From NCBI RefSeq assembly GCF_047521145.1, contig NZ_JBKOKE010000001.1: a stretch of 24,000 nucleotides of DNA. One strand, written 5' to 3'. A program made the position numbers and the translations under genes. Position 1 is the first letter of the stretch. Every line of letters begins with the position of its first letter. The notes under the pieces are model-generated. The model did no database searches. It saw only the letters and a list, made by a program, of their open reading frames with translations, and was not told where the DNA came from. Below, piece by piece: positions 4,381-24,000 of the stretch. Source of the DNA: Horticoccus sp. 23ND18S-11. Lineage in GTDB: Bacteria; Verrucomicrobiota; Verrucomicrobiia; Opitutales; Opitutaceae.

Positions 4381-4388
4381 CTTCCCTC

Positions 4389-5040: not shown

Positions 5041-5043
5041 AAA

Positions 5044-5991: not shown

Positions 5992-6086
5992 GTGAAGCGT
6001 GACGGAAAGACAGAGACGCGGTCTCGCGTGACTGCAACTCCGGAGATGCAGTACCAATCGCTCGATGCCTTTCGACTGTAGCCGTG

Positions 6087-6136: not shown

Positions 6137-6206
6137 TACGTTCGATCAGGAGGTCCAAGAGCAAAGGGCGATTGGTCTAACATGAGGATAAGATCACGTT
6201 GCACCA

Positions 6207-7376: not shown

Positions 7377-7515
7377 AGCCGCCCGTCAGCAGCAGAATCA
7401 CGCAGATGAGGACAATCAGGCCGACGGCACCGCCGCCGAACACCGGACCGCCGAAGTAAAAGCCGCCGCCACCGAACAAGAGCAGCAATACGATGATGAG
7501 AAGGAGGGGATTCAT
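7363..7515 (-). CDS. Small Gly-rich two-helix membrane protein (DUF3309-like in architecture)
   Basis: The 50-aa product is MNPLLLIIVLLLLFGGGGFYFGGPVFGGGAVGLIVLICVILLLTGGFKSR, taken from the internal ATG 7515. It has two hydrophobic segments separated by a Gly-rich turn. Its 3' end overlaps the convergent dipeptidase gene by 14 nt. Confidence 0.45.
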   Translation of the reverse strand: MNPLLLIIVLLLLFGGGGFYFGGPVFGGGAVGLIVLICVILLLTGGFKSR

Positions 7516-7666
7516 CCCATCATGGTACGGTGCGGCGCGCCCCGGTTCCGTGGGCGTGCGAATAGTTCCCGCAAACGGGATTGCACGAGGCCGGTAAAGC
7601 TCACGAAGTCGTCGGCGCAACGCGTCCTCCGCTCTGGAACCCCAGCTCCGCGTTCACCCCGCTCCC

Positions 7667-9331: not shown

Positions 9332-9382
9332 GCCGGCAAACGGGCGAACAGCGCAGAGTCGGTTTACCCTCCCGGAGGATTT

Positions 9383-9448
9383 TTACAGGAGGCAACGGAG
9401 GTCACTGAGAAAAGGCCCGGACTCGATTGCCTCTGTTGCCTCCTGTAA
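9383..9448. repeat. Palindromic intergenic element, family D; 19-nt arms
   Basis: ttacaggaggcaacggagg (9383-9401) pairs with cctctgttgcctcctgtaa (9430-9448) with one mismatch and a 28-nt loop. The left side contains GGAGGCAAC GGAGGTCAC, a 9-nt period. It lies between the convergent symporter and helicase genes. Confidence 0.75.
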
Positions 9449-9523
9449 GATTTCTGCGGTCTCGGTGTGGCCGCCTACATCAAACGCTGGACACATTTTT
9501 TCTTAAGTTGCCCGTGCGGGCTC

Positions 9524-11527
9524 TCACCACCCGTAGCTGCGCTTCATCTTCAACGGCTGGTAGAGATCACTCGAAAGCTCGGTGAGGAAACGACTCGGCG
9601 TCTGCAGCATCGCGGGCCCGCCCTTGGTGTTCACCTTGGGGAAACACAGGTAGAGCTCGTCGCGCGCGCGGGTGACCGCGACGTAGAACAGCCGGCGCTC
9701 CTCCTCGACGTCACCGGCCTCGATCGCACGGCGCAGGGGAAACATGCCGTCCGCGAGGCTGATCAGGAAAACGGCGGAGTACTCGAGGCCCTTGGCCTGG
9801 TGCACGGTCGTCAGTCGCAGAGCGTCGGCGTCGGGATCGGCCGAACGATCACTGGTCTCGCTGTTGAGCAGCATGACCTGCGCGAGCAGTTCCTGCATGT
9901 CCTCGTAGCGCGACGCGAAACCGATCATCGATTTCAAGTCGTCCAGCCGCGAAATGTAATTCGAGAACGCGCCCTTGAGGTAGTCGCCGTACCAGCCGTC
10001 GATGGCGATCTCGACGGCGTTGTGCGGCTTCATCGTGCGCATCATTTCCTTCACCTGCTGGAGCGAGGCCACGAACTTGGGCCACTCCTCCTTGGCGTCC
10101 TTCGGCACGCGTGACGCCACATCGTCGGTGGCGAGTGCATCGATGAAGTCCTGCTGCATCAGACGCGCGTGTTCGTGCGCGGCGGCGTGGAGCTTTTGCG
10201 CGTTCTTGTCGCCGACCTTCGGCAGCAGCACGGCGATGCGATTCCACGCGGCGGTGTCGCTCGGGTTGTAGACGAAGCGCAGCAGCGCAATGAGATCGCG
10301 GATGTGCGCCTGCTCGAAGAACCGCACGCCGCTCGTGATCTGATACGGAATCTGCAGCCGCGACAGTTCGAGCTGGATGTCGAGGGCCTGGAAATGCGCG
10401 CGGTAAAGAATCGCGATGTCGCTCAGCGAGCAGCCTTCGTCGACGAGCCCGCGGATGCGTTGGACGATGAACTGCGCCTGCTCGCGGCCGTCCATCGCCT
10501 GCACGAAATACGGTTTCTCCGAATTGGCGCGATGCGGCCGCAATTCCTTCTCGAACGAGCGGCCCTTCGGTTGCGCGAGCAGCACGCCGTTGGCCAGCGC
10601 GAGGATCTGCGGCGTCGAGCGGTAATTCGTCTCGATGCGGTGAATCTGCGTGCCCGGGTGGCGGTCGGGAAACGTCAGGATGTTTTCGACGTTCGCGCCC
10701 CGCCACGTGTAGATGCACTGCGCGTCATCGCCGACGGCCATCACGCGGTGGTGCGAGCCGATGAGATCGACGATCTGAGACTGCAGGACGTTGGTGTCCT
10801 GGTACTCGTCGACGAGCACATGGCGGAAGCGGTGCGCGAAATACGCGGCGGTTTCCGGCGAGCGTTTCAACAGATCGAGCCAGTGTTCGAGCAAGTCATC
10901 GTAATCCAGGATGCTGGCCTCGCGTTTCTTCTCCGCGTACTTCTTCGCGAAGAGCGGCACGCGCTCGATGATGGCCTCGTGTTGCGGGAAGAAGCGCTGG
11001 ATCGTCTCGCTCAGCGGCAGCTGCGTGTTGCGCGACATCGAGATGATCGAATGCAACGGACCCGCGCGCGGATGGGTCTTGTCCTTGAAGAACGTCTTGT
11101 CGGCGGTCTCGACGGCGTCACGGAGCACGCCCTCGGACTCCTCGGCGTCGAGAATCGTGAAACTGCGCGGCAGGCCGATGGCGGCGCCGTGCATGCGCAG
11201 GGCGCGATGCCCGATGCTGTGAAACGTGCCGCCCCAGAACCGGCCGGGCTCGACGCCGGTCAGCTCGTGCACCCGGTGGAGCATTTCCTTCGCGGCCTTG
11301 TTGGTGAATGTGAGCAGCAGGATGTCGCCGGGCCGCGCGCCCCGCGAAAGCAGGTAAGCCACCCGGTAGGTGAGGGTGCGGGTCTTGCCCGAGCCGGCGC
11401 CGGCGAGCACGAGCAGTGGCCCCGGTTCCGCGGTCACGGCGGCAAACTGTTCGTCGTTGAGTTCCCGGCGGAAATCAATCGGCGGAAAGCCTTGCGGCGC
11501 GGAAGCTGGGTCCAGGGCGAAATCCAT
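9524..11527 (-). CDS. ATP-dependent DNA helicase, UvrD/PcrA/Rep family (SF1)
   Basis: The ORF carries Walker A AGAGSGKT, motif II DEYQDT, TVHQAKGLE and YVAVTRA. The start was taken at ATG 11527 (MDFALDPASA...); the ORF maximum is 11578. Confidence 0.9.
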   Translation of the reverse strand: MDFALDPASAPQGFPPIDFRRELNDEQFAAVTAEPGPLLVLAGAGSGKTRTLTYRVAYLLSRGARPGDILLLTFTNKAAKEMLHRVHELTGVEPGRFWGGTFHSIGHRALRMHGAAIGLPRSFTILDAEESEGVLRDAVETADKTFFKDKTHPRAGPLHSIISMSRNTQLPLSETIQRFFPQHEAIIERVPLFAKKYAEKKREASILDYDDLLEHWLDLLKRSPETAAYFAHRFRHVLVDEYQDTNVLQSQIVDLIGSHHRVMAVGDDAQCIYTWRGANVENILTFPDRHPGTQIHRIETNYRSTPQILALANGVLLAQPKGRSFEKELRPHRANSEKPYFVQAMDGREQAQFIVQRIRGLVDEGCSLSDIAILYRAHFQALDIQLELSRLQIPYQITSGVRFFEQAHIRDLIALLRFVYNPSDTAAWNRIAVLLPKVGDKNAQKLHAAAHEHARLMQQDFIDALATDDVASRVPKDAKEEWPKFVASLQQVKEMMRTMKPHNAVEIAIDGWYGDYLKGAFSNYISRLDDLKSMIGFASRYEDMQELLAQVMLLNSETSDRSADPDADALRLTTVHQAKGLEYSAVFLISLADGMFPLRRAIEAGDVEEERRLFYVAVTRARDELYLCFPKVNTKGGPAMLQTPSRFLTELSSDLYQPLKMKRSYGW

Positions 11528-11640
11528 GAAGGCGTGGTGCGAAAGGAGGATGGCCGCAAAAAGGCGCTGGCGGCGCAAAGAAAATCAGAGCGAACGCAGG
11601 GGGAATGGGAATCCGATTGCGACGGATCCAAGTCTTGGGC

Positions 11641-11705
11641 CCACGGAACACACGGAATACACGGAAAACGGGCCTGAGCTTCCGTGTATTCCGTGTGTTC
11701 CGTGG
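11641..11705. repeat. Palindromic intergenic element, family E; perfect 26-nt arms with a 9-nt sub-period
   Basis: ccacggaacacacggaatacacggaa (11641-11666) pairs with ttccgtgtattccgtgtgttccgtgg (11680-11705) around the 13-nt loop aacgggcctgagc. CACGGAA recurs three times per arm. It lies in the divergent helicase/DUF4139 promoter region. Confidence 0.85.
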
Positions 11706-11782
11706 GCACCCTGCTGAAAGACGGAGTCGACGGTGGAGTCGGAATTTTTCCAAGGAACTCGCTGCTGGCGCGTCTATCCTAG

Positions 11783-13234
11783 ATGGCTATGTCTTATGTC
11801 ATGAACATCCGGCTCGTTTCGCTGCTTTCCGTCGTCGCTTCCACTGCGTTCGCCCAGCCGGCGCTCACGGTTTACAATCAGGGCTTCGCGGTGGTGCGCG
11901 AGCGCGTGCCGCTCGACCTCAAGGCGGGCGAGAACGCATTCACGTTTGCCGGCGCCACGGCGATGCTCGAAGCGGACTCCGTGGTCCTGCGCGATCCGGC
12001 GGGCAAGGTGGCGTTGCGCGTGCTGGAGCAAAGCTACCGCGCCGACGTGATGTCACAGGGCGTGCTGCTCGCCCTCAACGAGGGCAGGGCGATCGATTTT
12101 CTCGTCCGCGATCAAAACGCCAAGGAATACACGGTGAGCGGCAAGGTCATCCGCAGCGGCTACGCGCCGGGGGGCGAACAAAGCGCGCCGATCATCGAGG
12201 TCGACGGCAAGCTGCGGTTCTCGCTGCCGGGCGAGCCGTTGTTTCCGACCCTGCCAGGTGACGGGGTGCTGAAACCGACGCTCACGTGGAAAATCGGCGT
12301 GGCCCAGCCGGCGAAGCTGGAGGCCGAACTCGCCTACATCACGGGCGGGTTGAGCTGGCAGTCGGCGTACAACCTGGTCGCGCCGGAGAAGGGCAACCAA
12401 CTCGACGTCGTGGGCTGGGTGACGGTGAACAACCAAAGCGGCAAGGTGTTTGAGAACGCCGCGGTCAAGCTGATGGCGGGCGATGTGAACAAGATCGCGC
12501 CGAAGGCCGCGCGGGGCGGCGGGCCCGTCCGCATGGAGATGATGGCGATGGCGTCGATGGATGCCGCGGTCACCGAAAAAGCCTTCGATGAATTTCACCT
12601 CTACACGCTTCCGCGCGCGGTGACGCTCCGCGACCGCGAGACCAAGCAGGTCGAGTTCATGCGCGCGACGGGCGTGACGGCGCCGGTGATCTATGTCTTC
12701 GACGGCGCGTCGAACTACGGCACGTACCGGGGCGGCATGATGCGCGATCCCGGCTTTGGCACGCAGGGCAACACCAAGGTGTGGGTGATGCGGGAATTCA
12801 AGAACAGCGAGGAGAACAAGCTCGGGCTCCCGTTGCCGAAGGGGCGGCTGCGGTTTTACCGTCGTGACGACGCCGACGGCCGCATCGAGTTCACTGGTGA
12901 GAGCGAGTTGGATCACACCGCGAAGAATGAAATGATCCGGGTGAAGACTGGCGATGCCTTCGACGTCGTGGGTGAGCGGATACGCACGAACTTCAACGGC
13001 AACAACCGCCAGGATTTCGCCGAGGAGGATTTCGAAATCAAGGTGCGCAACCGCAAGGCCGAGCCCGTGACGGTGCGAATCGTCGAGCACCTCTATCGCT
13101 GGAACAACTGGCGGATCGTGCAGCAGTCGGACGAGTTCACGAAGAAGGATGCGCAGACGATCGAGTTCAACGTGACCGTCCCGCCGGATACGCAGAAGAC
13201 CGTGACGTATCGGGTGCGTTACGAGTGGAAGTGA
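11783..13234 (+). CDS. Secreted DUF4139-like (MuiA-like) protein of unknown function
   Basis: The 483-aa ORF has a signal peptide ...MNIRLVSLLSVVASTAFA|QP (alternative start ATG 11801). The segment LTVYNQGFAVVRERVPLDLKAGENAFTF resembles the N-terminus of DUF4139/TIGR02231-type proteins. This assignment is from memory and not verified. Confidence 0.55.
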   Translation: MAMSYVMNIRLVSLLSVVASTAFAQPALTVYNQGFAVVRERVPLDLKAGENAFTFAGATAMLEADSVVLRDPAGKVALRVLEQSYRADVMSQGVLLALNEGRAIDFLVRDQNAKEYTVSGKVIRSGYAPGGEQSAPIIEVDGKLRFSLPGEPLFPTLPGDGVLKPTLTWKIGVAQPAKLEAELAYITGGLSWQSAYNLVAPEKGNQLDVVGWVTVNNQSGKVFENAAVKLMAGDVNKIAPKAARGGGPVRMEMMAMASMDAAVTEKAFDEFHLYTLPRAVTLRDRETKQVEFMRATGVTAPVIYVFDGASNYGTYRGGMMRDPGFGTQGNTKVWVMREFKNSEENKLGLPLPKGRLRFYRRDDADGRIEFTGESELDHTAKNEMIRVKTGDAFDVVGERIRTNFNGNNRQDFAEEDFEIKVRNRKAEPVTVRIVEHLYRWNNWRIVQQSDEFTKKDAQTIEFNVTVPPDTQKTVTYRVRYEWK

Positions 13235-13264
13235 GGGAAGGACGTGATGGGGAAGATCGGCCTG

Positions 13265-13318
13265 GGACCGCGACCGCCCCCGGTCGCTGATTAGGGCGAC
13301 CGGGGGCGGTCGCGGTCC
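13265..13318. repeat. REP pair (BIME-like): two inverted 23-nt REPs
   Basis: ggaccgcgaccgcccccggtcgc (13265-13287), the loop tgattagg, and the perfect reverse complement (13296-13318). Each REP itself contains a 7-bp stem GCGACCG/CGGTCGC. Confidence 0.9.
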
Positions 13319-13341
13319 AAGTGCTGCACGGTTCCGATGGT

Positions 13342-13950
13342 CTACACCGGTCCTTGGTACGCTCTGCTCCACGGCCAATCTTCCGCCCGGGCCACGAGTC
13401 CCGCAGTCACCGGATTGCGATGGATGTAATCCACGGCGGCGCGGTAGTGCCGTTGGTTGCGGATGTACCGATCGAAGTAGTCCAGCTGCCAAATCCGCCC
13501 TCTCCGGATCTGTGGCCCCCCTGGACCGCGACCGCCCCCGGTCGCCTCCGCATCCGTCGCTTCCAAAATCCTCCGCGCACTCACGCTCTTCCAAGCCGAA
13601 ACCGTCTTCCCAATCGTCACCTCCGCCAGCGGCTCGACGATCACATGCACGTGATTCGGCATGATCACCCACGCGTAAAGCCGGTAGTCGTGGTCGTTCC
13701 GATGATGGAGGGCGTCACGCACCGCTGCCGCACAAGACGGCTGCCGCAACAGACACGTACCGTGGTGCGCGTCGAGGTAATGCTCGACAGCGGCGCGACG
13801 CTGGGCGTCATCGAGCGCCTGTTCTTCAAGTCGTCGGCAGACGTGAACAGGAAGCGAATCCGCCAGGTGATAGGTGATGGCCTGCATGGCCCGGCCGTCG
13901 TCGAAGTGCGGGAGGTAGCCGCGGGCATGCCAGCCGGGAGAATCGGGCAT
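13342..13950 (-). CDS. REP-associated tyrosine transposase (RayT; IS200/IS605 TnpA-like Y1 HUH enzyme)
   Basis: The 203-aa product runs from ATG 13950 as MPDSPGWHARGYLPHFDDG.... It has the HUH motif in MPNHVHVIV and the catalytic-Tyr region AAVDYIHRNPVTAGLV. The ORF-track extension to 14133 runs through REPs and the tandem array and was discarded. Confidence 0.8.
   Translation of the reverse strand: MPDSPGWHARGYLPHFDDGRAMQAITYHLADSLPVHVCRRLEEQALDDAQRRAAVEHYLDAHHGTCLLRQPSCAAAVRDALHHRNDHDYRLYAWVIMPNHVHVIVEPLAEVTIGKTVSAWKSVSARRILEATDAEATGGGRGPGGPQIRRGRIWQLDYFDRYIRNQRHYRAAVDYIHRNPVTAGLVARAEDWPWSRAYQGPV
13523..13545. repeat. Perfect REP copy inside the RayT coding sequence
   Basis: The 23-nt ggaccgcgaccgcccccggtcgc is identical to the flanking REPs. 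On the minus strand it reads in frame as ATGGGRGP, within ...RRILEATDAEATGGGRGPGGPQIRRGRIWQLDYFDRY.... Confidence 0.9.
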
Positions 13951-13961
13951 GATTGATTCTG

Positions 13962-14041
13962 GGACCGCGACCGCCCCCGGTCGCCAGCCGTACGGATGCC
14001 CGAAACACAGTACAAGCAGCGACCGAGGGCGGTCGCGGTCC
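13962..14041. repeat. REP pair upstream of RayT; inverted copies with a 34-nt spacer
   Basis: A perfect REP lies at 13962-13984, 12 nt from the RayT start codon. An inverted copy gcgaccgagggcggtcgcggtcc lies at 14019-14041 with one mismatch. Confidence 0.85.
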
Positions 14042-14106
14042 CAGTCCGGTCCCAGTCCGGTCCCAGTCCGGTCCCAGTCCGGTCCCAGTCCGGTCCCAGT
14101 CCGGTT
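14037..14106. repeat. 11-bp tandem repeat GGTCCCAGTCC, about 6.4 copies
   Basis: Six perfect units run 14037-14102, followed by ggtt. The first unit overlaps the GGTCC end of the adjacent REP. Confidence 0.95.
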
Positions 14107-14154
14107 GCAAGCCGATCGCCTGACCCACTTCAACTCCTCCGCGCACTCACCCGC

Positions 14155-15285
14155 CTACAACAACACCAGATCGTTCCGGTGCACGACCTCGAGCCGCTTG
14201 CGCGCAGGATAGAGCCGGGCGACGTCGGCGCCGTGTTTGCCGGCGAGCGCCGGAATTTCCGCGCTGCCGAACGCCGCTTTGCCGCGGGCGAACACTTCTT
14301 TGTCCGGCCCGGCGATGTTGACGATGTCACCGGCGGCAAACTCGCCTTCGTTGCCGGTGACGCCCACCGCCAGAAGACTGCGGCCCTGGTCGCGCAGTAC
14401 GGGCACCGCGCACGCATTCACGACGATCGTGCCGGCAGGACGCTGGAAAAAGGCGAGCCAGCGTTTCTTCGCTTCCATCGGCAGTCCGCTCGGAACGAAG
14501 AACGTGCCCGGGCCGCGGCCCGCGAAAAGTTTCTCGAGGATGCGCGGCTCGGATCCGCTCGCGATGAACACGCCGCAGCCCGCCTTAATCGCGAGCTTCG
14601 CCGCGGAGATCTTGCTGATCATGCCGCCCGTCGCGGTCTCGCTGGTCGTGCCGCCGGCCATCGCCTCGATCTCCGGCGTGATCCGCTCCACCACGGGCAC
14701 GATTTCCTTCGTGCCCTTCATGTCGATCAGGCCGGGCGCGGTGGACAAAATGACGAGATAATCCGCCTGCGTGAGGCTCGCGACCATCGCCGACAGCGTG
14801 TCGTTGTCGCCGAACTTCAGCATCGCGCGAATTTCGGCCGCGCTGACGGTGTCGTTTTCGTTGATGATCGGCACCGTGCCGTAGGCGATGAGCTGTTCGA
14901 GGCACTGCTTGATGCCCAGGTAACGATCGCGATCGCGCAGGTCTTCGTGCGTGAGCAGCACCTGGGCAACGGTGAAACCGTGCGGCGCGAAACCGGCCTG
15001 CCACGTTTGCATGAGCAACGACTGGCCGATGGCGGCGCAGGCCTGCTTTTTCGAAACATCCTTGGGTTTGCGCGCGAGCTGCAGCGCGCCCATGCCCAAG
15101 CCCACGGCACCGGAGGAAACAACGATGACCTCTGTGCCGCCCGCGCGCAACGCGGCGATCTCCGCGCACACGGCTTTGATGCGCGTCGTGTCCAGTTGTC
15201 CGATACCGGTGGTCAGGACGCCGGTGCCGAGTTTCACGACGACCCGGCGCGGACGCGCATGGCTGAGACTGGAGGCGGCGGGCAT
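14155..15285 (-). CDS. proB: Glutamate 5-kinase with C-terminal PUA domain
   Basis: The ORF has RVVVKLGTGVLT, the central motifs FGDNDTLSA and TGGMISK, and a PUA-like C-terminus. The start was chosen at ATG 15285; ATG 15360 is the ORF maximum. Confidence 0.9.
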   Translation of the reverse strand: MPAASSLSHARPRRVVVKLGTGVLTTGIGQLDTTRIKAVCAEIAALRAGGTEVIVVSSGAVGLGMGALQLARKPKDVSKKQACAAIGQSLLMQTWQAGFAPHGFTVAQVLLTHEDLRDRDRYLGIKQCLEQLIAYGTVPIINENDTVSAAEIRAMLKFGDNDTLSAMVASLTQADYLVILSTAPGLIDMKGTKEIVPVVERITPEIEAMAGGTTSETATGGMISKISAAKLAIKAGCGVFIASGSEPRILEKLFAGRGPGTFFVPSGLPMEAKKRWLAFFQRPAGTIVVNACAVPVLRDQGRSLLAVGVTGNEGEFAAGDIVNIAGPDKEVFARGKAAFGSAEIPALAGKHGADVARLYPARKRLEVVHRNDLVLL

Positions 15286-15373
15286 GAGGCGGGAGGCGAA
15301 GCGTGACGGCACAGCGAAAGCGCCGGCGGCAGGCGGAGGCCTGACATCCGGCGCGTTCACTGCGGCGCGTGGC

Positions 15374-15919
15374 TTAGACCGTCAGCAGGTCCTTCTCCTT
15401 GTGGGCGAGATGGGTGTTGATGTCGGCGATGGCCTTGTCGGTCGCGGTCTGAATGTCCTTTTCGAGGCGCTTCATTTCGTCCTCGGGCAGCTTGGCCTTC
15501 TTGGCGGTCTCGATGGCGTCGCGGCGCACGTTGCGCACATGGACGCGGCCTTCCTCGGCGAGACGGTGGGCGTTCTTGACGAACTCCTGGCGGCGCTCGC
15601 GGCTCATGTCGGGGAGCGGCACGCGGATGATTTTACCATCGATGATCGGGTTGAACCCGAGGTTGGCGTCGATGATGCCCTTGGCGATGGCCTTGGAGAG
15701 CGTGGTGTCCCACGGCTGGATTTGGATCAGGCGGGCGTCGGGCGTCGAGATGGCGGCGCACTGTTTCAGGGGCGTCATCGAGCCGTAGGCCTCGACCATC
15801 ACGGTTTCCACCATCTGCGGCGTCGCCTTGCCGGTGTGGATGGAGCTGAACTCATGCAGCGTGTGATCGAGGGCTTTTTTCATGCGCGCTTGCGCGTCGT
15901 TCAGGATGGGATGGCTCAT
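15374..15919 (-). CDS. frr: Ribosome recycling factor
   Basis: The 181-aa ORF has a typical RRF sequence (...HTGKATPQMVETVMVEAYGSMTPLKQCAAISTPDARLIQIQPWD..., ...IRVPLPDMSRERRQEFVK...). It lies downstream of pyrH, the usual arrangement. Confidence 0.95.
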   Translation of the reverse strand: MSHPILNDAQARMKKALDHTLHEFSSIHTGKATPQMVETVMVEAYGSMTPLKQCAAISTPDARLIQIQPWDTTLSKAIAKGIIDANLGFNPIIDGKIIRVPLPDMSRERRQEFVKNAHRLAEEGRVHVRNVRRDAIETAKKAKLPEDEMKRLEKDIQTATDKAIADINTHLAHKEKDLLTV

Positions 15920-15928
15920 GGAGGAATG

Positions 15929-16027
15929 GGTTGAGAGGTGAGAGTTGAGGGTTGAGAGCCAGAAACTTCAAGGGCGAGTCGGACTGTGGTCCGAGATCTC
16001 TCAACCCTCAACTCTCAGCTCTCAACC
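15929..16027. repeat. Palindromic element, family G; 30-nt arms built from heptamers G[G/T]TGAG[A/G]
   Basis: The left arm is 15929-15958 and contains GTTGAGA GGTGAGA GTTGAGG GTTGAGA (15930-15957). The right arm is 15998-16027, with one mismatch and a 39-nt loop that holds the small hairpin cggac-tgtg-gtccg. The element occupies almost all of the 119-nt pyrH-frr spacer. Confidence 0.85.
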
Positions 16028-16038
16028 GCCGGGCCCGC

Positions 16039-16776
16039 TCAGTTGCGCACCAGCGTGCCGATTTTCTCGCCGACGATCGCCTTGCGGATGGCGTGCTTGT
16101 CGTTGAGGTCGAACACCAGGATCGGGACGTTGTTGTCCATGCACAGGGAGAACGCCGTCGAATCCATCACGTTGAGCCGCTGCTTCAGCGCGTCGATGAA
16201 CGTGATCTGGTCGTACTTCACCGCATCGCTGTGCTTCTTCGGGTCCTTGTCGTAGATGCCGTCGACCTTCGTCGCCTTCATGATGATGTCGGCGTGCATC
16301 TCACTGGCACGGAGGGCCGCGGTGGTGTCGGTCGAGAAATACGGATTGCCCGTGCCGGCCACGAAGATCACGACGCGGCCCTTTTCCAGATGGCGGACGG
16401 CCCGGCGCAGGATGAACGGCTCAGCAATCTGGTTCATCGGAATCGCGGACTGGACCCGGGTGTTCACGCCCAGTTTTTCCAGGCAATCCATCAGCGCGAG
16501 GCCGTTGATGACCGTCGCCAGCATGCCCATGTAATCACCGGTCGTGCGGTCCACGCCGCGCTTCTCGCCATTGAGGCCCCGGAAGATGTTGCCGCCGCCA
16601 ATCACGACGCACACCTGCACGCCCAGCTCATGGATCTCCTTCACCTGCGAACAGACCTCGGACAGCGTGGCGCCGTCGATCGGATCCCCTCCTTTTCCAC
16701 CCCGAAGCACTTCACCTGAGAGCTTCAGGATGACACGTTTATATTTGGCGCGGGGATCTGGTTTGGAATCACGCAT
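16039..16776 (-). CDS. pyrH: UMP kinase
   Basis: The ORF reads [21 protein letters not shown] and ...[23 protein letters not shown].... The start was taken at ATG 16776; the ORF maximum is 16830. Confidence 0.93.
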
Positions 16777-16938
16777 GCCCTGCAGGAAACGAGCGGGAAA
16801 AATCCGCGTCAATGCCCGAGATGGTCGCATCTTCGGCGCGATCCGGTGATTTGGGCCGGGCTCACGGTCGGCGCGATCCCTCCCGTCGGAAGGGTGGTTC
16901 GCCCGACCTGAAATTGTCCGTAACGCCCAGCCTGCATG

Positions 16939-17228: not shown

Positions 17229-17900
17229 ATGAAAACTCCCTCGTCTTCGCGGCCTTTGGCTTCGCCGTCGCCTTCGTCCCGCGCCTCTCTGCGCGTCGTT
17301 CCGGCTCTTGGATTTGCGGCTCTGCTCTGGGTAAGCGCGGGCACCGTGTTTGCCCAGGCGCCTGCGGCCGGGGCCGATGACGCGAATCGTCGGCGGCGCC
17401 CCACGCAGGACGGCGCGGCTGGCGGGGATCGGGGTAATTTCAATCCGGCGGAAATGCAGGCGCGCATGCTGACGCAGCTGCGCGAACGGCTCGAAGTCAC
17501 GGACGACGAGGAGTGGAAGGTGATTTCCGATCGCATTGCCAAGGTGAACGAACTCCGGCGCAGCGCCCCGGGCGCGGGTGGCGGCATCGGCGCCTTCATG
17601 GGCCGCGGCGGTCCGGGTGGTCCGGGCGGTGGTCCTGGTGGCGGCGCGCCGGGCGGCGGTGGCGACACCAGCGGCCGGGGCCGCGGCACGCGGACCGGCG
17701 GCGGGAGCACCGAGATGACGGCCCTCGCCAGCGCGCTGCGCGACAAGCTGCCCGACGCTGAGGTCAAATCGCGTCTCGATCGCGTGCGCGAACTGCGCAA
17801 GGAGAACGAGCTCAAGCTGACGAAGGCGCAGGAAGAATTGCGGGTCGTGTTGTCGGTTCGCCAGGAAGCGACCGCCGTGATGTTTGGCCTGCTGCCCTGA
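17229..17900 (+). CDS. Secreted Gly-rich protein of unknown function with helical LTxxQ-like segments
   Basis: The 223-aa product from ATG 17229 has a signal peptide ...ALGFAALLWVSAGTVFA|QAP. A helical segment EMQARMLTQLRERLEVTDDEEWKVISDRIAKVNELRR is followed by a Gly/Pro-rich linker (GRGGPGGPGGGPGGGAPGGGGD) and a second helical segment. GC3-rich codon usage supports coding. Its stop overlaps the gspE ORF start by 17 nt. Confidence 0.6.
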   Translation: MKTPSSSRPLASPSPSSRASLRVVPALGFAALLWVSAGTVFAQAPAAGADDANRRRRPTQDGAAGGDRGNFNPAEMQARMLTQLRERLEVTDDEEWKVISDRIAKVNELRRSAPGAGGGIGAFMGRGGPGGPGGGPGGGAPGGGGDTSGRGRGTRTGGGSTEMTALASALRDKLPDAEVKSRLDRVRELRKENELKLTKAQEELRVVLSVRQEATAVMFGLLP

Positions 17901-19677
17901 ACCCGTGGCCACCGAACTTGCACCCGCCGGCGGCGCCAACGGCGTCCTCCCTGAATTGCTCGGCCGCATGATTGCGGACCGGCAGCTCACCGAGACCGAT
18001 GCCCGCTCCTTCCAGAAACAGAATTCGGGTGCCGAGGCGCTGACCGAGGAGCGCGTGCTGCGCTGGCTGGCGCGCGAATACGGCGTGCCGTTTGCCAAGC
18101 TCGACGAACTCGAGCCGGACAAGCAGGTGCTGTCGCTCTTCCCCGCGCGCCTGCTGTTGCGCGACGAACTCCTGCCGCTGCGCCGGGTCGACAACCAGAT
18201 TGAGATCGCCACGAGCCGGCTCTTCGCCACCCAGGGCCTCGACGGCCTGAAGGCGCTGACCGGGCTCCGGCTGCGGCCGGTGCTCGCTCCATCGGAGGCG
18301 ATCCAGCGCGAGATGAAGAAACGTCTCGGCGTCGGTGCCGACACGATCGACACGCTCGACGACGAGGCGGGATTGCAGGTCGTCGACGAGAACGGCACCG
18401 GCGACAACAATCTCGACGAGGCGGCCGAGGACGCGTCGATCATCCGTTTCGTCAACCAGGTGTTGAAGGACGCGATCGAGCTGCGCGCGTCGGACGTGCA
18501 CCTCGAGCCGTTCGAGGACGAACTCCGCATCCGCTATCGCATCGACGGTATTCTGCAGGAAGTGCCCGTGCCCGCGCAGATCAAACGCTTCCAGCCGGCG
18601 ATCGTGGCGCGCGTGAAGATTCTCAGTCATCTCAACATCGCCGAGAAACGCCTGCCGCAGGACGGCCGCATCAAGGTCCGGATCGAGGACGCCGAGGTCG
18701 ACATCCGCGTATCCATCATCCCTATGCTGCACGGCGAGGCCGTGGTCATGCGCTTGCTGCGCCAGAACTCCAAGCTGCGCGGCGCGCGCGATCTCGGCAT
18801 GGGCGAACGCGAACTCACGTGTCTGCAGCGCGTGCTCGAGCTGCCGCACGGCATCGTGCTCGTCACCGGCCCCACCGGTTCCGGCAAGACGTCGACGCTC
18901 TACACCGCGCTCAACGAAATCAACGACTCGGAGCGCAAGATCATCACGATTGAGGATCCCGTCGAATATCAGCTCAAGGGCGTGAATCAGATCCAGGTGT
19001 CGGAAAAGTCCGGTCTCACCTTCGCCCGCGGCCTCCGCTCAATTCTGCGTCATGACCCCGATGTCGTGCTCATCGGTGAAATCCGCGACCAGGAAACCGC
19101 GCAGATTGCGGTCCAGGCTTCCCTCACGGGGCACTTGGTCTTTTCGACGCTGCACACCAACGACGCCGCCGGCGCGCTCACGCGTCTCGTCGACATGGGC
19201 GTGGAACCGTATCTCGTCGCTTCCTCGCTGGAAGCGGTGCTCGCGCAACGCCTCGTGCGTCTGCTCTGTCCGCATTGCAAGGAAGTCGACACGACGACCG
19301 AGTCGCGGGTGTACCGGACGAAGCTGGGCATCAAGCCCGAGGCGAAAGTGTATCGCGCGGTCGGCTGCCGCGAATGTCGTCAGACCGGCTACCATGGCCG
19401 TCGCGCGATTTTCGAATGGATGGATTCGAGCAGCGAAATCCGTTCGCTCATTTTGAAGAACGGCTCGACCGACGCCATTCGCGATTCCGCCCGCCGCGCC
19501 GGAATGAAGACGCTGGCCGAGGACGGACGCCGGCTGGTGGAGCAGGGGATTTCGACCATCGAGGAGATCTTGAGCGTCACGACCGTGCACGAAATGGAAA
19601 CGACCGACGCCAAGCCGAACCATCACGCGCCCGCCACCAACGGAGCCGAAGCCGCCCTGCCGCGTTCGTTGATCTAA
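17884..19677 (+). CDS. gspE: Type II secretion / type IV pilus-family assembly ATPase (GspE/PilB family)
   Basis: The ORF has a T2SSE_N-like N-domain, Walker A GPTGSGKT, Walker B VVLIGEIRD, His box GHLVFSTLHTND, and the tetracysteine CPHC...CRECRQTGYHGR. The start is uncertain among ATG 17884, GTG 17905 and ATG 17968. Confidence 0.9.
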   Translation: MACCPEPVATELAPAGGANGVLPELLGRMIADRQLTETDARSFQKQNSGAEALTEERVLRWLAREYGVPFAKLDELEPDKQVLSLFPARLLLRDELLPLRRVDNQIEIATSRLFATQGLDGLKALTGLRLRPVLAPSEAIQREMKKRLGVGADTIDTLDDEAGLQVVDENGTGDNNLDEAAEDASIIRFVNQVLKDAIELRASDVHLEPFEDELRIRYRIDGILQEVPVPAQIKRFQPAIVARVKILSHLNIAEKRLPQDGRIKVRIEDAEVDIRVSIIPMLHGEAVVMRLLRQNSKLRGARDLGMGERELTCLQRVLELPHGIVLVTGPTGSGKTSTLYTALNEINDSERKIITIEDPVEYQLKGVNQIQVSEKSGLTFARGLRSILRHDPDVVLIGEIRDQETAQIAVQASLTGHLVFSTLHTNDAAGALTRLVDMGVEPYLVASSLEAVLAQRLVRLLCPHCKEVDTTTESRVYRTKLGIKPEAKVYRAVGCRECRQTGYHGRRAIFEWMDSSSEIRSLILKNGSTDAIRDSARRAGMKTLAEDGRRLVEQGISTIEEILSVTTVHEMETTDAKPNHHAPATNGAEAALPRSLI

Positions 19678-19690
19678 ACTCCACTCCGCG

Positions 19691-20956
19691 ATGCCGCAGT
19701 TTGCCTACAAGGCCATGCAGCACGATGGCGTGCTGACCGAAGGATTGCTTGAAGCCAGCAACCGCCAGGAGGCGATGCGCCAGGTGGAAGGCCGGGGCCT
19801 GAAACCGATTAAGCTGGCCGAATCGGCCGGCGGTGCCGCCCCGAAGAAACCGGGCGGTGGCGCGGGCGCCGCACCGGCGACGGGCGGCGGCTCGGCGCTG
19901 TCGTTTGGCCGGAAGGCGAAGATCACGCCGCGCATGCTGGAGAATTTCACGCGCCTGCTGTCGAGCCTGCTCGCGGCCGGCGTGCCGTTCAGCCGCGCGC
20001 TCGTCATCCTGCACCGTGAATCCGGCGAGCCGGTCGCGAAGGCCAAGTGGAAGGAGATTCACGATCTCGTGATCGACGGCATGTCGCTGTCGAAGGCGAT
20101 GGAGCGCTCGCCCGAGACCTTCCCGCGCGTTTACGTGGCGATGGTCGAGGCGGGCGAGACCGGTGGCTTTCTCGACGTTGTGCTGGCGCAGATCGCAGAC
20201 TTCCAGGCGCGCGAAAAGGAGCTCAAGTCGAAGGTGATGACGGCGCTGATGTATCCGATCATCCTGCTGATCCTTGCGCTCGGCGTGCTGGTGTTCCTGA
20301 TGGTGTTCTTCATCCCGCGCTTCCAGCTGATCTTCGCGGGCTTCAACGCCGAACTGCCCCTGATCACGCAGGTGATCGTGAAAACGAGCGAACTCGTGCG
20401 CGGCTACGGTTTGTTTCTGGCCGCGGCCGTGGTTGTCGGCGTGATCATGCTCAAGAGCTGGTTCAACTCGCCGAAGGGCCGGCGCGCGTGGGAGGGCATG
20501 TTGCTCAAACTCTCGATCGTCGGGCCGTTGATCGCGCAATTCGCGATGGCGCGTTTCTGCCGCATGCTCGGCACGCTCTTGCAGGCCGGCGTGCCGTTGA
20601 TCAGCGCGTTGAACGTCGCGCGCCGCTCCATCGGCAACCAGGTTCTCATCGACGCCGTGTCGGACTCGATCGATCGCGTGAAGGAGGGCAAACCGCTCGG
20701 CAAGAGCCTCGCGCAGAACCGCAATCTGTTTCCCGGCGCGATCGTCGAGATGATCTCGGTCGCCGAAGAGAGCGGCAAACTCGATGTCGAGTTGATGCGC
20801 ATCGCCACGGTCACCGAGGGCGACCTCGATCGTCAGCTCAAGTCCGCCGTCGCGCTCGCGGAACCCGTCATGCTCTTCGTCATCGCCGCGTTCATCGGCA
20901 CCATCTTCATCGGCATGGTGATCCCGATCTTCTCCCTGCAGGACCACATCAAATAA
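19691..20956 (+). CDS. gspF: Type II secretion system inner-membrane platform protein GspF
   Basis: The 421-aa ORF has two internal T2SSF repeats (LSSLLAAGVPFSRAL and LGTLLQAGVPLISAL) and hydrophobic TM segments. It lies directly after gspE. Confidence 0.9.
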   Translation: MPQFAYKAMQHDGVLTEGLLEASNRQEAMRQVEGRGLKPIKLAESAGGAAPKKPGGGAGAAPATGGGSALSFGRKAKITPRMLENFTRLLSSLLAAGVPFSRALVILHRESGEPVAKAKWKEIHDLVIDGMSLSKAMERSPETFPRVYVAMVEAGETGGFLDVVLAQIADFQAREKELKSKVMTALMYPIILLILALGVLVFLMVFFIPRFQLIFAGFNAELPLITQVIVKTSELVRGYGLFLAAAVVVGVIMLKSWFNSPKGRRAWEGMLLKLSIVGPLIAQFAMARFCRMLGTLLQAGVPLISALNVARRSIGNQVLIDAVSDSIDRVKEGKPLGKSLAQNRNLFPGAIVEMISVAEESGKLDVELMRIATVTEGDLDRQLKSAVALAEPVMLFVIAAFIGTIFIGMVIPIFSLQDHIK

Positions 20957-20966
20957 TTTTTCATCC

Positions 20967-21449
20967 ATGAATCTGAACCACTCGAAAAAGACCCCGCGCG
21001 TTTCGTTCCATCGCGGCCCAGCTCGCCGAAGCCGCGGCGAAGGCGGCTTCACCCTCGTCGAGCTCCTTCTCGTGCTCGTGATTCTCGGCATTCTCGCCGC
21101 GATCGTGGTGCCGAAGTTCGGCGGCCGCACCGAGCAGGCGCGTATCACCGCCGCGGTGACGCAGATCTCGACCTTCGGCACGGCGCTCAACGCGTTTGAA
21201 GTCGACACCGGCAGCTATCCGCGCGGCCAGGACGGTCTCCGGCAGCTGCTTGTTGCCCCCGCGGACATCACCGGCTGGCGCGGGCCGTACCTGATGAGCG
21301 ACATTCCGCTCGATCCCTGGGGCCGCGCCTACCTGTACGAGTTTCCCGGCCGCGTGAATCCCAGCGGCTACGACATCGTTTCGATGGGACCGGACGGTCA
21401 GCCCGGCACGCCCGACGACGTGGTGAATGCCAGCATCACCGGAAAGTAA
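20967..21449 (+). CDS. gspG: Major pseudopilin GspG
   Basis: The class III signal ends in G|FTLVELLLVLVILGILAAIVVP. The GspG core reads ...LDPWGRAYLYEFPGRVNPSGYDIVSMGPDGQPGTPDDVVN. The leader is 27 aa, and no in-frame ATG, GTG or TTG lies between ATG 20967 and the cleavage site. Confidence 0.9.
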   Translation: MNLNHSKKTPRVSFHRGPARRSRGEGGFTLVELLLVLVILGILAAIVVPKFGGRTEQARITAAVTQISTFGTALNAFEVDTGSYPRGQDGLRQLLVAPADITGWRGPYLMSDIPLDPWGRAYLYEFPGRVNPSGYDIVSMGPDGQPGTPDDVVNASITGK

Positions 21450-22026
21450 ACGCTCGCGCCGCTGGTGTCGCGCCTTCCTCCGCCGCAATCGCAGCGGAGG
21501 CGGGTTCACCCTGATCGAATTGATCTTCGTGCTCGCGCTGCTGGCGATCGGCGCGCTGTTCGTGGCGTCGCGCATGGGCGCCTTCATCCGCGGACGCGCC
21601 CTGAACTTCGAGGCGCGGCGGCTGTTGTCGCTGTCGCATTATGCCCAGAGTCGCGCGGTCGCCGAGGGCGTGCCGATCATACTTTGGGTCAACGCCAAGG
21701 ACTCCACCTACGGCATTGCGATCCAGTCCACCTTCGGCGTCACCGGCGACGACGAGGTCGACATGCACGCGGTCAGTTATACCGCCGAGTCCAGCGTGAC
21801 GTTGGAAGCGCCCACGGGGCCGACGGCCGCCGTTTCCGAGCAGGAAGACGAACGCCTCGGGCTGACTGAAGGCCTCGCCGCCATCCGCTTTAATCCCGAC
21901 GGCTTCTTCGACGAATCGAGCGTGATCAAGATCACGCTCCGTCAGGGCACCGAGGCCGGCCTTGAGTTGGTCCAGACGGCCAACCGCCTCGCCTACGAAA
22001 TTCGCCCCGCGTCCAATGCCGACTGA
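21427..22026 (+). CDS. gspH: Minor pseudopilin, GspH/FimT-like
   Basis: The ORF has GGG|FTLIELIFVLALLAIGALFV followed by RGRALNFEARRLLSLSHYAQSRAV, which is GspH-like. It occupies the position after gspG and overlaps gspG by 23 nt. The leader is 26 aa. Confidence 0.7.
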   Translation: MPASPESKRSRRWCRAFLRRNRSGGGFTLIELIFVLALLAIGALFVASRMGAFIRGRALNFEARRLLSLSHYAQSRAVAEGVPIILWVNAKDSTYGIAIQSTFGVTGDDEVDMHAVSYTAESSVTLEAPTGPTAAVSEQEDERLGLTEGLAAIRFNPDGFFDESSVIKITLRQGTEAGLELVQTANRLAYEIRPASNAD

Positions 22027-22495
22027 CGCCCAGTTCCGTCCGCATCTCGGTTCGACCAAGAACGGACCCGCCCGCCGTAGCCTTGGCGAAGGCGGCTTCA
22101 CCCTCGCCGAAGTCCTCGCCGCGCTTTTGTTCATGGCGATCCTCGTGCCAGTCACGATGCAGGGCGTCACGGTGGCGAGCCGCGCGGGCATGCTGGGCCA
22201 GCGCAAGGCCGCGGCGATGCGCATCGCCGAGCGCGTGCTCGAGGAGCAGCTCGTATCCGGACAGGTCGCGACGGCCACGCCCTACGGTACGGTCGTTGAC
22301 GGCGACATGAGTTATCCGTGGAGCATGAGGTCCGACCCGTGGCCGGAAGACACGGCGATCGCCCTGAACGTGCTGACCGTGCGCGTGGAGTTCACCGTGC
22401 AGGGGGCGACGTTCGACGTGGCTGTATCCACCTTGTACGATCCGGCGATCACCGTCACGACGTCCACCAGCTCACCGGCAGTCAGCGTCGAGTGA
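22016..22495 (+). CDS. gspI: Minor pseudopilin, GspI-like by N-terminus, size and position
   Basis: The start is ATG 22016, overlapping the gspH stop by 11 nt. The 27-aa leader ends in GEGG|FTLAEVLAALLFMAILV. The mature part is about 133 aa. Confidence 0.6.
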   Translation: MPTDAQFRPHLGSTKNGPARRSLGEGGFTLAEVLAALLFMAILVPVTMQGVTVASRAGMLGQRKAAAMRIAERVLEEQLVSGQVATATPYGTVVDGDMSYPWSMRSDPWPEDTAIALNVLTVRVEFTVQGATFDVAVSTLYDPAITVTTSTSSPAVSVE

Positions 22496-23310
22496 TGATC
22501 TCCCGGCCTCCAGTTTCCCGTCTTAAGTGCGGCCGCAATCGCGGCCCAAGCGGACCCGTCCGCCGTAGGCTTGGCGAAGGTGCACCTGTCCGCCGTAGGC
22601 TCGGCGAAGGCGGATTCACCCTCCTCGAACTCCTCCTCGCCACCGCCATCGGCGCGGTCGTGCTGCTGGTGGTCAACGCCACGTTTTTCTCCGCGCTGCG
22701 CCTGCACAACGCCACGCATGATCGGATCGACGGCGATCTCGTGATTCAGCGCACGCTGGGCATCGTGCGCCGCGATCTCGCGGGAATCATGATCCCGCCC
22801 AACCCGCAGGCGACGACGCCCAAGCTGTCCGGGCAGCTGGTCACCGACGGTGCGACGACCAACGCGATGGACGCCACCGCCGAACGCATCACGCCGGACA
22901 TCTACACGAACTCCGGCCGGCTTGATGGCTGGTCGACCTTCTCCGATGTGCAGATGGTGTCGTATTATCTCGCGCCGGCCACCGATGGATCGCCGACGAA
23001 GAATCTCGTGCGCGTCGTGACCCGCAACCTGCTCCCCGTGATCGAGGCGACCACCGAGGATCAGACGCTGCTGACCGGCGTCACGGCTGCCGCGATGAGT
23101 TATTTCGATGGCGAAAACTGGCTCGATATCTGGGACTCGACGGCGAGCAGCAGTCTGCCGACCGCCATCAAGTTCAGCGTCGTGGTCGCGCCGCGCGATC
23201 GCACCGTGTCCAGCGCGGAGCCCGCGCCGATTGAACTGATCGTGCCGGTGATCGTGAAGACGATTGCCACGTTGCAGCAGGAAGTCGCCGCGGAGGCGGC
23301 GTCGCTATGA
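22495..23310 (+). CDS. gspJ: Minor pseudopilin, GspJ-like
   Basis: The start ATG 22495 overlaps the gspI stop (TGATG). The 40-aa leader ends in GEGG|FTLLELLLATAIGAVVLLVV. The mature part is about 231 aa and sits in the expected position before gspK. Confidence 0.6.
   Translation: MISRPPVSRLKCGRNRGPSGPVRRRLGEGAPVRRRLGEGGFTLLELLLATAIGAVVLLVVNATFFSALRLHNATHDRIDGDLVIQRTLGIVRRDLAGIMIPPNPQATTPKLSGQLVTDGATTNAMDATAERITPDIYTNSGRLDGWSTFSDVQMVSYYLAPATDGSPTKNLVRVVTRNLLPVIEATTEDQTLLTGVTAAAMSYFDGENWLDIWDSTASSSLPTAIKFSVVVAPRDRTVSSAEPAPIELIVPVIVKTIATLQQEVAAEAASL
22558..22617 (+). repeat. 30-bp tandem duplication within the gspJ leader-coding region
   Basis: gtccgccgtaggcttggcgaaggtgcacct (22558-22587) is followed by gtccgccgtaggctcggcgaaggcggattc (22588-22617). 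The first 23 nt match at 22 of 23 positions. The duplication encodes VRRRLGEGAP then VRRRLGEGGF. Confidence 0.9.
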
Positions 23311-24000
23311 AGCGCGTTTACGAACGCCCCCTCGCTTCCAGTCGTGGCTACGAGCGCCAGCGAGTGGCGCTGGCTCCCCGTTCGTCGCGCGGCTCCGTCC
23401 TGATCATCGTGATGTGGATCTGCCTCGGGCTCGTCGCGCTCGCGCTGTATTTCGCCAACTCGATGAACTCGGAGCTGCGCGCCGGCGACAACCGCGTCGC
23501 CGAGGTCGCGGCCCGCCAGGCCATCGCCGGCGGCATCCGCTACGCGACGTCTGTGCTGACCCAATACGCCGTCGGCGGGACGGTGCCGGCCCTCGAGGAT
23601 TATCGCGCGGAGGCCGTGCCAGTGGGTGACGAGGCCAGTTTCTGGTTCATCGGTCGCGCCTATGATGCGTTGCCCTCGCAGCAACAGACCAACGAGCCTT
23701 TCTTCGCGCTCGTCGATGAGGCGTCGAAGCTGAATCTCAACACCGTGACGTCGGCGATGCTGCAGGCGCTGCCGCTGCCCGACATGACGCCCGAGTTTGC
23801 CGACGCGATCGTGGCGTGGCGGAGTGCCAACAGCCAGAACGCGGCGATCGCCGAGAACTATTATTCGCAGCTCGACCCGCCGCGGCACAACAAGGGCGCG
23901 GCCTACGAAACCGTCGACGAGCTCCGGCTCATCAACGGCGCGATGCTCCCGCTCGTGCTCGGCGAGGACATCAATCGTAACGGCGTGCTCGATGCCAATG
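23307..24000 (+). CDS. gspK: Type II secretion minor pseudopilin GspK (partial, runs off the window)
   Basis: My own translation from ATG 23307 (an ATGA overlap with the gspJ stop) gives ...RGSVLIIVMWICLGLVALALYF..., ...FALVDEASKLNLNTVTSAMLQAL...FADAIVAWR and ...ETVDELRLINGA.... These are GspK hallmarks. No stop occurs before position 24000. An alternative start is GTG 23364. Confidence 0.85.
   Translation, partial: MKRVYERPLASSRGYERQRVALAPRSSRGSVLIIVMWICLGLVALALYFANSMNSELRAGDNRVAEVAARQAIAGGIRYATSVLTQYAVGGTVPALEDYRAEAVPVGDEASFWFIGRAYDALPSQQQTNEPFFALVDEASKLNLNTVTSAMLQALPLPDMTPEFADAIVAWRSANSQNAAIAENYYSQLDPPRHNKGAAYETVDELRLINGAMLPLVLGEDINRNGVLDAN
23347..23374. repeat. Copy of a family C palindrome arm inside the gspK 5' coding region
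   Basis: gctacgagcgccagcgagtgg (23347-23367) equals the reverse complement of the right arm at 6116-6136. It differs by one nt from the left arm at 6087-6107. The following cgctggc forms a short local hairpin gccagcg-agtgg-cgctggc. Confidence 0.85.

Follow-up and report, generated by a model that had tools for sequence, protein, structure and literature searches.

In-frame palindromic repeats within genes have already been described, notably in the Opitutaceae. The palindromic elements of Rickettsia (RPE), a subject of Ogata et al. in 2000, are reportedly inserted in frame in coding genes and translated as extra segments without destroying the protein. The small dispersed repeats of cyanobacteria, treated by Elhai et al. 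in 2008, are said to be palindromic, about 21-27 nt long, apparently mobile, and nested in each other and in genes. We know of no link between these cyanobacterial repeats and signal peptides, nor, to our knowledge, has repeated insertion at one signal-peptide junction been described for repetitive extragenic palindromes (REPs). Opitutus terrae, of the Opitutaceae, is highly enriched in palindromic REPs, and no other surveyed genome holds as many in-gene copies; over all the species surveyed, such copies lie more often at the N-terminus of a protein than at its C-terminus (Di Nocera et al. 2013, PMC3733652). Here we analyze a 24,000-nt stretch of DNA (the window) from Horticoccus sp. 23ND18S-11 (Opitutaceae; contig NZ_JBKOKE010000001.1), in which a short repeated module lies in the leaders of pseudopilin genes of a type II secretion system (T2SS), namely gspG, gspI and gspJ and possibly gspH. 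We consider it probable that this module is a 30-nt REP-like hairpin repeat inserted in frame between Gly(-1) and Phe(+1) of the prepilin cleavage site, and that it is a passenger and not a conserved processing signal. What appears to be new is this repeat family, how widely it extends across phyla, and how it builds up step by step at the junction where prepilins are cleaved.

The unit has the form CCYGYC-CGCC-GTAGCCTTGGCGAA-GGCGG-N and is read in the codons CCY GYC CGC CGT AGC CTT GGC GAA GGC GGN, giving P[AV]RRSLGEGG. DNA comparison with relatives placed it exactly between the Gly(-1) (GGN) and Phe(+1) (TTC) codons. Comparing the junctions with the core by Hamming distance in a fixed register was insensitive, and a covariance model was used instead. 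All copies in the window lie on the + strand. The gspI copy (22067-22096; cccgcccgccgtagccttggcgaaggcggc, PARRSLGEGG) was pristine, with 24 of 24 bases equal to the cross-phylum core and 46.4 bits (E = 2.5e-8) under model R1. Two units were found in gspJ. The one adjoining Phe(+1) (22585-22614; cctgtccgccgtaggctcggcgaaggcgga, PVRRRLGEGG) scored 46.0 bits (E = 3.1e-8) under R1, and the distal one (22555-22584; cccgtccgccgtaggcttggcgaaggtgca, PVRRRLGEGA), of the GGCTY loop subtype, had three mismatches to the core. Tandem Repeats Finder gave a period of 30 nt and 1.9 copies at 22554-22610 in gspJ, with 92% matching. The gspG copy (21018-21047; ccagctcgccgaagccgcggcgaaggcggc, PARRSRGEGG) was partly decayed, with four mismatches to the 24-nt core and 20.3 bits (E = 0.018) under R1; it formed a clean 30-nt indel against orthologues with 17-aa leaders. 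The gspH leader held a possible old, degenerate unit (21475-21504; ttcctccgccgcaatcgcagcggaggcggg, FLRRNRSGGG), in which 19 of 30 bases fit the consensus by eye and the score (10.2 bits, E = 3.5) was not significant. Two clear units were present at the corresponding gspH site of relative L204.

The DNA module CGCCGNAGNCNNGGCGAAGG occurred four times in the window, each time in a leader, against 0.08 occurrences expected. This excess, together with a core and flanks identical to those of a dispersed family, ruled out an origin by chance or codon bias. An earlier note on this DNA had reported 22 nt common to gspG and gspI and a near-identical pair of copies in gspJ, and both are visible in the sequence. 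The motif RR-x-x-G-[E/G]-G-G that it ascribed to all four leaders was found in G, I and J; the gspH version is loose (RRNRSGGG, with Ser for Gly), and its DNA copy is too decayed for a significant score.

The same core was found far beyond pseudopilin genes. One genome per GTDB species (596 Gb) was scanned for the 20-nt core CGCCGTAGNCTNGGCGAAGG, which gave at least 120 matches in genomes of at least ten phyla. Taxa among the matches listed were Acidobacteriota, Verrucomicrobiota, Bacteroidota, Planctomycetota, Patescibacteria, Nitrospirales, Lentisphaeria, Kiritimatiellia, Marinimicrobia, Acidimicrobiia, and alpha- and delta-proteobacteria. By our own estimate, the 18 fixed bases of the pattern would yield possibly tens of chance matches in 596 Gb of GC-rich DNA. 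Chance was ruled out for the dispersed copies because positions left free in the search pattern are conserved. Among the copies listed, the unsearched flanks had G at +2 and +3 in 118 of 126 and C at -1 in 85 of 126, and the free loop positions were C in 111 of 126 and T in 104 of 126. TTCACC directly 3' of the core was seen in none of 128 copies among the matches listed. The copies lay mostly outside long open reading frames (ORFs), the median largest stop-to-stop span over them being 189 aa vs 431 aa at random positions. Several genomes held at least two matches, and about 20 further copies were detected within the 8-kb flanks. Opitutaceae genomes with core matches were L033, L061, L065, L066, L068 and L074. 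The loop subtype was GCCTT in gspI and GGCTY in gspJ; both exist among dispersed copies, and the subtype of the second gspJ unit recurred in dispersed verrucomicrobial copies such as those of L018, L041 and L079. Because their subtypes differ, the gspI and gspJ copies were not derived from each other.

Some dispersed copies were read in frame within proteins other than prepilins. These were found in the activation loop of a Ser/Thr kinase (L101, ~1967-2014, - strand; DFG...RRSLGEGG...APE), at the N-terminus of a flavoprotein ahead of its GGGPAG motif (L003, 4171-4218, - strand) and, in the antisense frame (PPAFAEATAG), in a DEAD-box/DUF1998 helicase (L085, 7083-7130 and 6288-6335). An identical core dispersed across phyla at non-prepilin, mostly non-coding positions bears out the third reading offered in the earlier note, namely repeat-derived sequence co-opted into coding DNA. 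Of its overall interpretation this alternative was supported; a dedicated recognition module was not.

Several features of the dispersed copies were noted in passing. Their consensus was about 30 nt long, cYTGYC-CGCC-GTAGCCTTGGCGAA-GGCGG-R (e.g. L005 266-313, L066 5845-5892 and L038 41-88). Arrays with periods of 32 and 61 nt were found at L038 41-88 and its flanks, L079 2283-2452 and L098 4671-4782. In L038 a left half-unit GACTTGTCCGCC and a right half-unit GGAAGCCTTGGCAAAGGC each occurred several times, on both sides of one core. Loops split between GTAGCC and GGCGAAGG by extra sequence were seen at L038 5956-6033, L002 3324-3386 and L089 6280-6347; at L038 5956-6033 the interrupting sequence was a second copy of the repeat, indicating nested insertion. 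A role of the dispersed copies as intrinsic terminators was rejected, a 3' T-run being present in isolated cases (e.g. L011) and not generally. Rfam 15 matched only tRNAs in 12 repeat-bearing loci, and in window 20500-23500 it gave no meaningful match at thresholds up to E = 10; literature searches for the DNA and peptide strings, and the REP papers checked, did not show the repeat sequence. The right half of the unit, TGGCGAAGGCGG (window 22083-22094), is presumably identical to a universally conserved segment found in bacterial 16S rRNA around E. coli position 720, which may be coincidence.

The repeat forms a hairpin in which a 6-bp stem, [T/C]CCGCC with GGCGG[A/G], closes the loop GTAGCCTTGGCGAA. 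The outermost stem pair (columns 13 and 38), which lay outside the search pattern, was C-G in 41 copies, U-A in 40 and G-C in 9. Pairing was seen in 90.3% of cells vs 27-50% with the partner slid, and the covariation score was reached by none of 500 shuffles. Copies that the covariance model recovered outside the search pattern kept the loop while their stems co-changed, for example CCAGCC with GGCTGG. The consensus folded at -20.9 kcal/mol (z = -5.2). In the window, the copies in G, I and J folded no better than shuffled sequence (z -0.03 to -1.7). A suggestion that the module is an mRNA structure had been made in the earlier note, and it fits the covarying stem of the family but not the folding of these window copies. 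The most stable hairpin of the region lay in the gspH leader (21472-21507; CCUCCGC with GCGGAGG, -22 kcal/mol, z = -3.98), about 27 nt 3' of the gspG stop codon, where an mRNA stabilizer or attenuator acting after the major pseudopilin gene would be well placed.

The resemblance to described repeats is partial in each case. Like the RPE, the present palindromic unit inserts in frame and is translated; unlike the RPE, which are said to be ~100-150 bp long, found in Rickettsia and relatives and placed in surface loops of mature proteins, it is 30 nt long and sits in a peptide that is removed. It shares nesting (L038 5956-6033) with the cyanobacterial small dispersed repeats, and differs from them in sequence and host range. 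The repeat also resembles the GTAG- and CGTC-tagged REPs (PMC3733652). Like these, it is palindromic, with a unit (30-32 nt) within the REP range of 20-40 bp, and among the copies listed it appears multi-copy, mostly extragenic and often clustered or in inverted pairs. Its stems covary and include G-T pairs, it contains the GTAG tetranucleotide, and in-frame copies occur inside known proteins. Unlike in REPs, GTAG lies inside the loop, 3' of the left stem arm (CCGCC-GTAG...GAA-GGCGG), and is not an unpaired tag outside the stem; it would be a terminal tag only for a weak inner stem of 4-5 bp, CCTT with AAGG. The loop is the most conserved part of the present repeat, and its core is found in at least ten phyla, whereas a single species is the known range of many REP families described so far. 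The REP families of O. terrae encode unrelated residues (VGPALAAG, GTGVPPV and others), and the in-gene table of PMC3733652 has no GEGG or RRSL entry. Because the encoded peptides differ, the present repeat is a different family from the O. terrae REPs.

The leaders that carry the repeat are long. Before the G|FTLxE cleavage site they measured 27 aa in gspG (20967-21047, with the Phe(+1) codon at 21048; MNLNHSKKTPRVSFHRGPARRSRGEGG), 26 aa in the gspH-like gene (21427-21504; MPASPESKRSRRWCRAFLRRNRSGGG), 27 aa in the gspI-like gene (22016-22096) and 40 aa in gspJ (22495-22614), all on the + strand. In none of the four was there an ATG, GTG or TTG from the start codon up to the G|F site; the sole near-cognate codons were CTG (codon 3 of G) and ATC (codon 2 of J). 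The gspH-like start is pinned because a stop codon immediately precedes its ATG, the N-terminus MNLKNSK is kept across GspG orthologues, and RefSeq proteins WP_414660035 to WP_414660038 (160, 199, 159 and 271 aa) are identical to the products of gspG-J and share their starts. The lack of an internal canonical start, the conserved N-terminus and the RefSeq agreement ruled out re-called starts, so that leaders of 26-40 aa without an internal start codon, as claimed previously, are confirmed.

The accompanying claim that T2SS leaders are normally under about 10 aa does not hold for this clade. Across 80 verrucomicrobial loci, which were located via GspG, basal leaders of ~11-25 aa were near-universal for G, H, I and J, and they end plainly in RRG, RRA or RAG. 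The shortest leaders among 120 close GspG orthologues were 15-17 aa, e.g. MNLKNSKQRSRISSRRG|FTLVELL. A leader below 10 aa is a habit of proteobacterial model systems (about 6-10 aa) and no requirement for membership. What is peculiar to Horticoccus and its near relatives is the extra 10-residue block, not the long basal leader. Type IVb prepilins likewise have a leader of 15-30 aa or more before a class III cleavage site, and differ in that the present proteins have Phe(+1), mature domains of T2SS G/H/I/J and a gspE-F-G-H-I-J-K...D operon, with extra length that comes from repeat insertion and not from a conserved long leader. Assignment as type IVb pilins was ruled out by Phe(+1), the T2SS G/H/J domains and the gsp-type operon. 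A twin-arginine translocation (Tat) signal peptide was also rejected on reading the sequence, which has RRS[LR]GEGG followed by G|FTLxE, without FLK and with Glu at -3.

Comparison with relatives revealed rapid turnover of the unit. Leaders of GspG orthologues clustered at 17/18, 27 and 35/36 aa, the 27-aa form being the 17-aa form plus [PL][AV]RRS[RL]GEG[GA]. For GspJ the clusters were 13/14 aa in 22 proteins, 23/24 aa in 45 and 33 aa in 7, followed by 39-40 aa; leaders of 18-22 aa look like partial deletions. Four relatives with 79-84% GspG identity differed gene by gene. L202 had a unit in G and I and none in H or J, L204 had one in G, two in H and none in I or J, and L206 had one in G only, its gspI orthologue having a 15-aa leader (MPTDAPRSSLYRSRA). 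L208 had a G without the unit and a J with a decayed one. Within one 90%-identity GspG cluster, members were 150 or 160 aa long and differed by the unit. A gspJ more than 90% identical to that of the window (L214, 123-302) carried four units of mixed loop subtypes in a 60-aa leader. Since this compares with two units and 40 aa here, the leader can be likened to a variable-number repeat between strains. The comparison of orthologous pseudopilins that the earlier note had proposed as a check thus showed leaders with 0-4 units and carrier genes that differ between relatives.

In two-unit leaders the unit adjoining Phe(+1) was nearer the consensus than the distal one in 9 of 11 cases, and the reverse was seen in none. 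New units may therefore enter at the junction, with older ones being pushed upstream and decaying. Of 80 verrucomicrobial T2SS loci that are more distant, 79 lacked the unit. Significant model matches in ~35 kb of the Horticoccus genome (including ~12 kb from Logan contigs beyond the window) and 85 kb of relatives were solely leader copies, on the + strand and immediately 5' of the Phe codon. When presence of the unit was mapped on the GspG tree, parsimony gave 21 changes vs 25.5 in shuffles, a comparison that is uninformative because the GspG mature domain is too conserved to resolve the tree.

We hypothesize that insertion is tolerated because prepilin peptidase would remove the whole leader. 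The sense frame may be the only one seen because Arg-Arg...Gly-Gly would preserve both the positive charge ahead of the membrane helix and the Gly at -1; one alternative frame of the unit holds a TAG stop. Leader length would then change in 10-residue steps, up or down, on a basal 13-17 aa normal for the clade. Recurrent use of the junction could arise by insertion or duplication beside existing copies, as in REP clusters, because the basal Arg-Arg-Gly codons (CGCCGNGGN) resemble the repeat's two stem arms with the loop removed (compare CCGCCGTGGA in L208 gspG), or through conversion among prepilin paralogues. The first two of these candidate causes are the likeliest.

Several observations weigh against a passenger repeat. 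Site, orientation and frame were identical in every leader copy seen, which is more than mere tolerance predicts: a unit at another point of the variable leader, or in the antisense frame PPSPRLRRTG (also Gly-final), should be equally acceptable. The ~35 kb of the Horticoccus genome that was read held no copy beyond the leaders, so dispersal within Horticoccus is inferred from other Opitutaceae genomes. Decayed leader copies tend to keep stem complementarity (the gspH hairpin at -22 kcal/mol; L204 H1), which could reflect selection on structure, a signal that is confounded because the stems encode Arg-Arg and Gly-Gly. Conservation of the cross-phylum core was partly imposed by the search pattern, GTAG being invariant by its design. 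No mobilizing enzyme was identified, no Y1 transposase search of the loci having been made; between the inverted copies of L025 there was no ORF longer than 93 aa. Target-site duplication is not claimable, as the GCGGN flanks agree in some copies but the 5' GA-CYTGYC stretch moves with dispersed copies.

On a bolder reading, the same unit would be a templated repeat or an active miniature insertion element found across phyla, and would home to the prepilin Gly(-1)/Phe(+1) junction, where Arg-Arg-Gly codons mimic its stem arms. Leaders would accrete stepwise (13, 23, 33, 40 and 60 aa) at a safe landing pad, and the hairpins might have been co-opted to tune pseudopilin stoichiometry in an operon lacking intergenic space. 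We offer this tentatively and regard it as doubtful.

The hairpin might instead act at the RNA level in the polycistronic T2SS transcript, by mRNA protection, as an RNase site or as a partial terminator, and so set the output of GspG vs H-K; we think this unlikely. Such an element could only sit in leader-coding stretches because the genes overlap without intergenic space. The covarying stem and conserved loop of the family, the strong gspH hairpin just past the gspG stop and the uniform sense orientation of the leader copies are all consistent with an RNA role. In L124 the stem was compensated (CCTCC with GGAGG), the right-arm change being synonymous. REPs within operons have also been reported as mRNA stabilizers and attenuators (PMC3733652, PMC12306157). 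Yet copies are missing from the same genes in close relatives as well as from nearly all the distant loci, and copy number ranges from 0 to 4. The G, I and J copies show no folding excess, and the loop, which is better conserved than any other part in the dispersed family, decays in leader copies. The conservation of the stem is itself confounded with the Arg-Arg and Gly-Gly codons.

A module selected as protein, that is, a functional leader extension for recognition, timing or quality control by a dedicated prepilin peptidase or for membrane targeting, is very unlikely. It would account for a module that always adjoins the cleavage site, for RR and GEGG as the best-kept residues across GspG and GspJ orthologues, and for the better conservation of the Phe(+1)-adjoining unit over the distal one; long basic leaders are also general in verrucomicrobial pseudopilins. 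Such selection is at odds with a 90%-identity GspG cluster that has members with and without the unit, with carrier genes that differ between relatives and with basal leaders that end simply in RRG, RRA or RAG. Identical DNA also occurs in non-coding DNA and in unrelated proteins of other phyla. The module was present in 0 of the 120 best generic prepilin N-termini, a weak negative because those matches are driven by the mature helix. No prepilin peptidase gene was found in the window or on the downstream contig. The element for a dedicated prepilin peptidase that the earlier note had envisaged is therefore not supported, given a unit present or absent in one GspG cluster, 0-4 units per GspJ, differing carrier genes and absence from 79 of 80 distant loci.

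A local origin, by slippage or tandem duplication of Arg/Gly-rich GC codons followed by gene conversion among G, H, I and J with a coincidental likeness to dispersed repeats, is highly improbable: the gspJ 30-nt array (92% matching), the 22 identical nt of G and I that reach into the mature coding region, and the constant position, frame and orientation that conversion of a leader-plus-GFTLxE block would predict are outweighed by a gspI copy equal to the cross-phylum core at 24 of 24 bases with the 5' CCYGYC flank of the family, by differing I and J subtypes both found among dispersed copies, by the mixed subtypes of the four-unit L214 array, by paralogue homology of only ~12-15 nt at the junction, and by a shared TTCACCCTC that is the outcome expected from codon bias alone.

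On the preferred reading as an inserted REP-like repeat, the shared RRxxGEGG is no evidence for a special prepilin peptidase signal, and a tempting false lead is removed. Annotators and pilin classifiers should not take leader length in Opitutaceae as a type IVb-like trait. A removable signal-peptide leader that absorbs in-frame repeats would give quantized, strain-variable leader lengths, and these provide a natural, built-in experiment on how much extra leader prepilin peptidase tolerates. The data also point to a small conserved-loop hairpin repeat across many phyla that has no Rfam family.

The repeat-bearing genes belong to a type II secretion operon at window 17884-24000, in the gene order gspE-F-G-H-I-J-K on the + strand. 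For gspE (17884-19677), TIGR02533 scored 602.8 bits, below the NCBIfam cut-off of 630.25, and PF00437 was above the Pfam cut-off. For gspF (19691-20956), TIGR02120 scored 344 bits, below the NCBIfam cut-off of 424, and PF00482 was above the Pfam cut-off. The major pseudopilin gene gspG (20967-21449, 160 aa) matched TIGR01710 at 123.9 bits (cut-off 88.85) and PF08334, and its start was identical to that of the RefSeq protein. The gspH-like minor pseudopilin (21427-22026, 199 aa) had weak matches to PF12019 (GspH) and TIGR01708 and an N_methyl motif. The gspI-like minor pseudopilin (22016-22495, 159 aa) matched TIGR01707 and XpsI weakly, and its operon position fits. The minor pseudopilin gene gspJ (22495-23310, 271 aa) matched PF11612 (T2SSJ) and TIGR01711, and its product was 100% identical to WP_414660038. 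gspK (23307-24000), cut by the window end, matched NF037980 and PF21687; it had no prepilin G|F motif and no repeat unit by the covariance model. In these profile searches the scores of H, I, J and K were below equivalog cut-offs, yet the families matched were the correct ones. All four pseudopilins have the class III signal peptide G|FTLxE, with Gly(-1), Phe(+1) and Glu(+5). PF07963 and TIGR02532 were above cut-off in G, H and J; the GspI motif was seen by eye, without a match to a profile hidden Markov model.

Neighboring genes overlap by 23 nt (G/H, 21427-21449), 11 nt (H/I, 22016-22026), 1 nt (I/J, TGATG at 22495) and 4 nt (J/K, 23307-23310), leaving zero intergenic space from gspG through gspK. 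The order E-F-G-H-I-J-K was likewise found in L001 and L213. Three unnamed ORFs and then the secretin follow 3' of gspK, with a histidine kinase and a sigma-54 response regulator further downstream on the contig. Upstream of the operon, window 92-16830 held ordinary housekeeping genes: SufB/D, SufC, a Fur-family regulator, an M19 dipeptidase, a sodium:solute symporter, a DUF4139 protein and an amino-acid kinase family gene. Two separate ORFs encode the T2SS secretin (L213 11357-12568 and 12609-13754, corresponding to ~27358-29755 in window coordinates, past the window end). The N0 and Secretin_N domains lie in one ORF and the Secretin domain in the other, with a gap of 40-66 nt across loci. 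The split was kept in every relative examined, including L202, L206 and L208.

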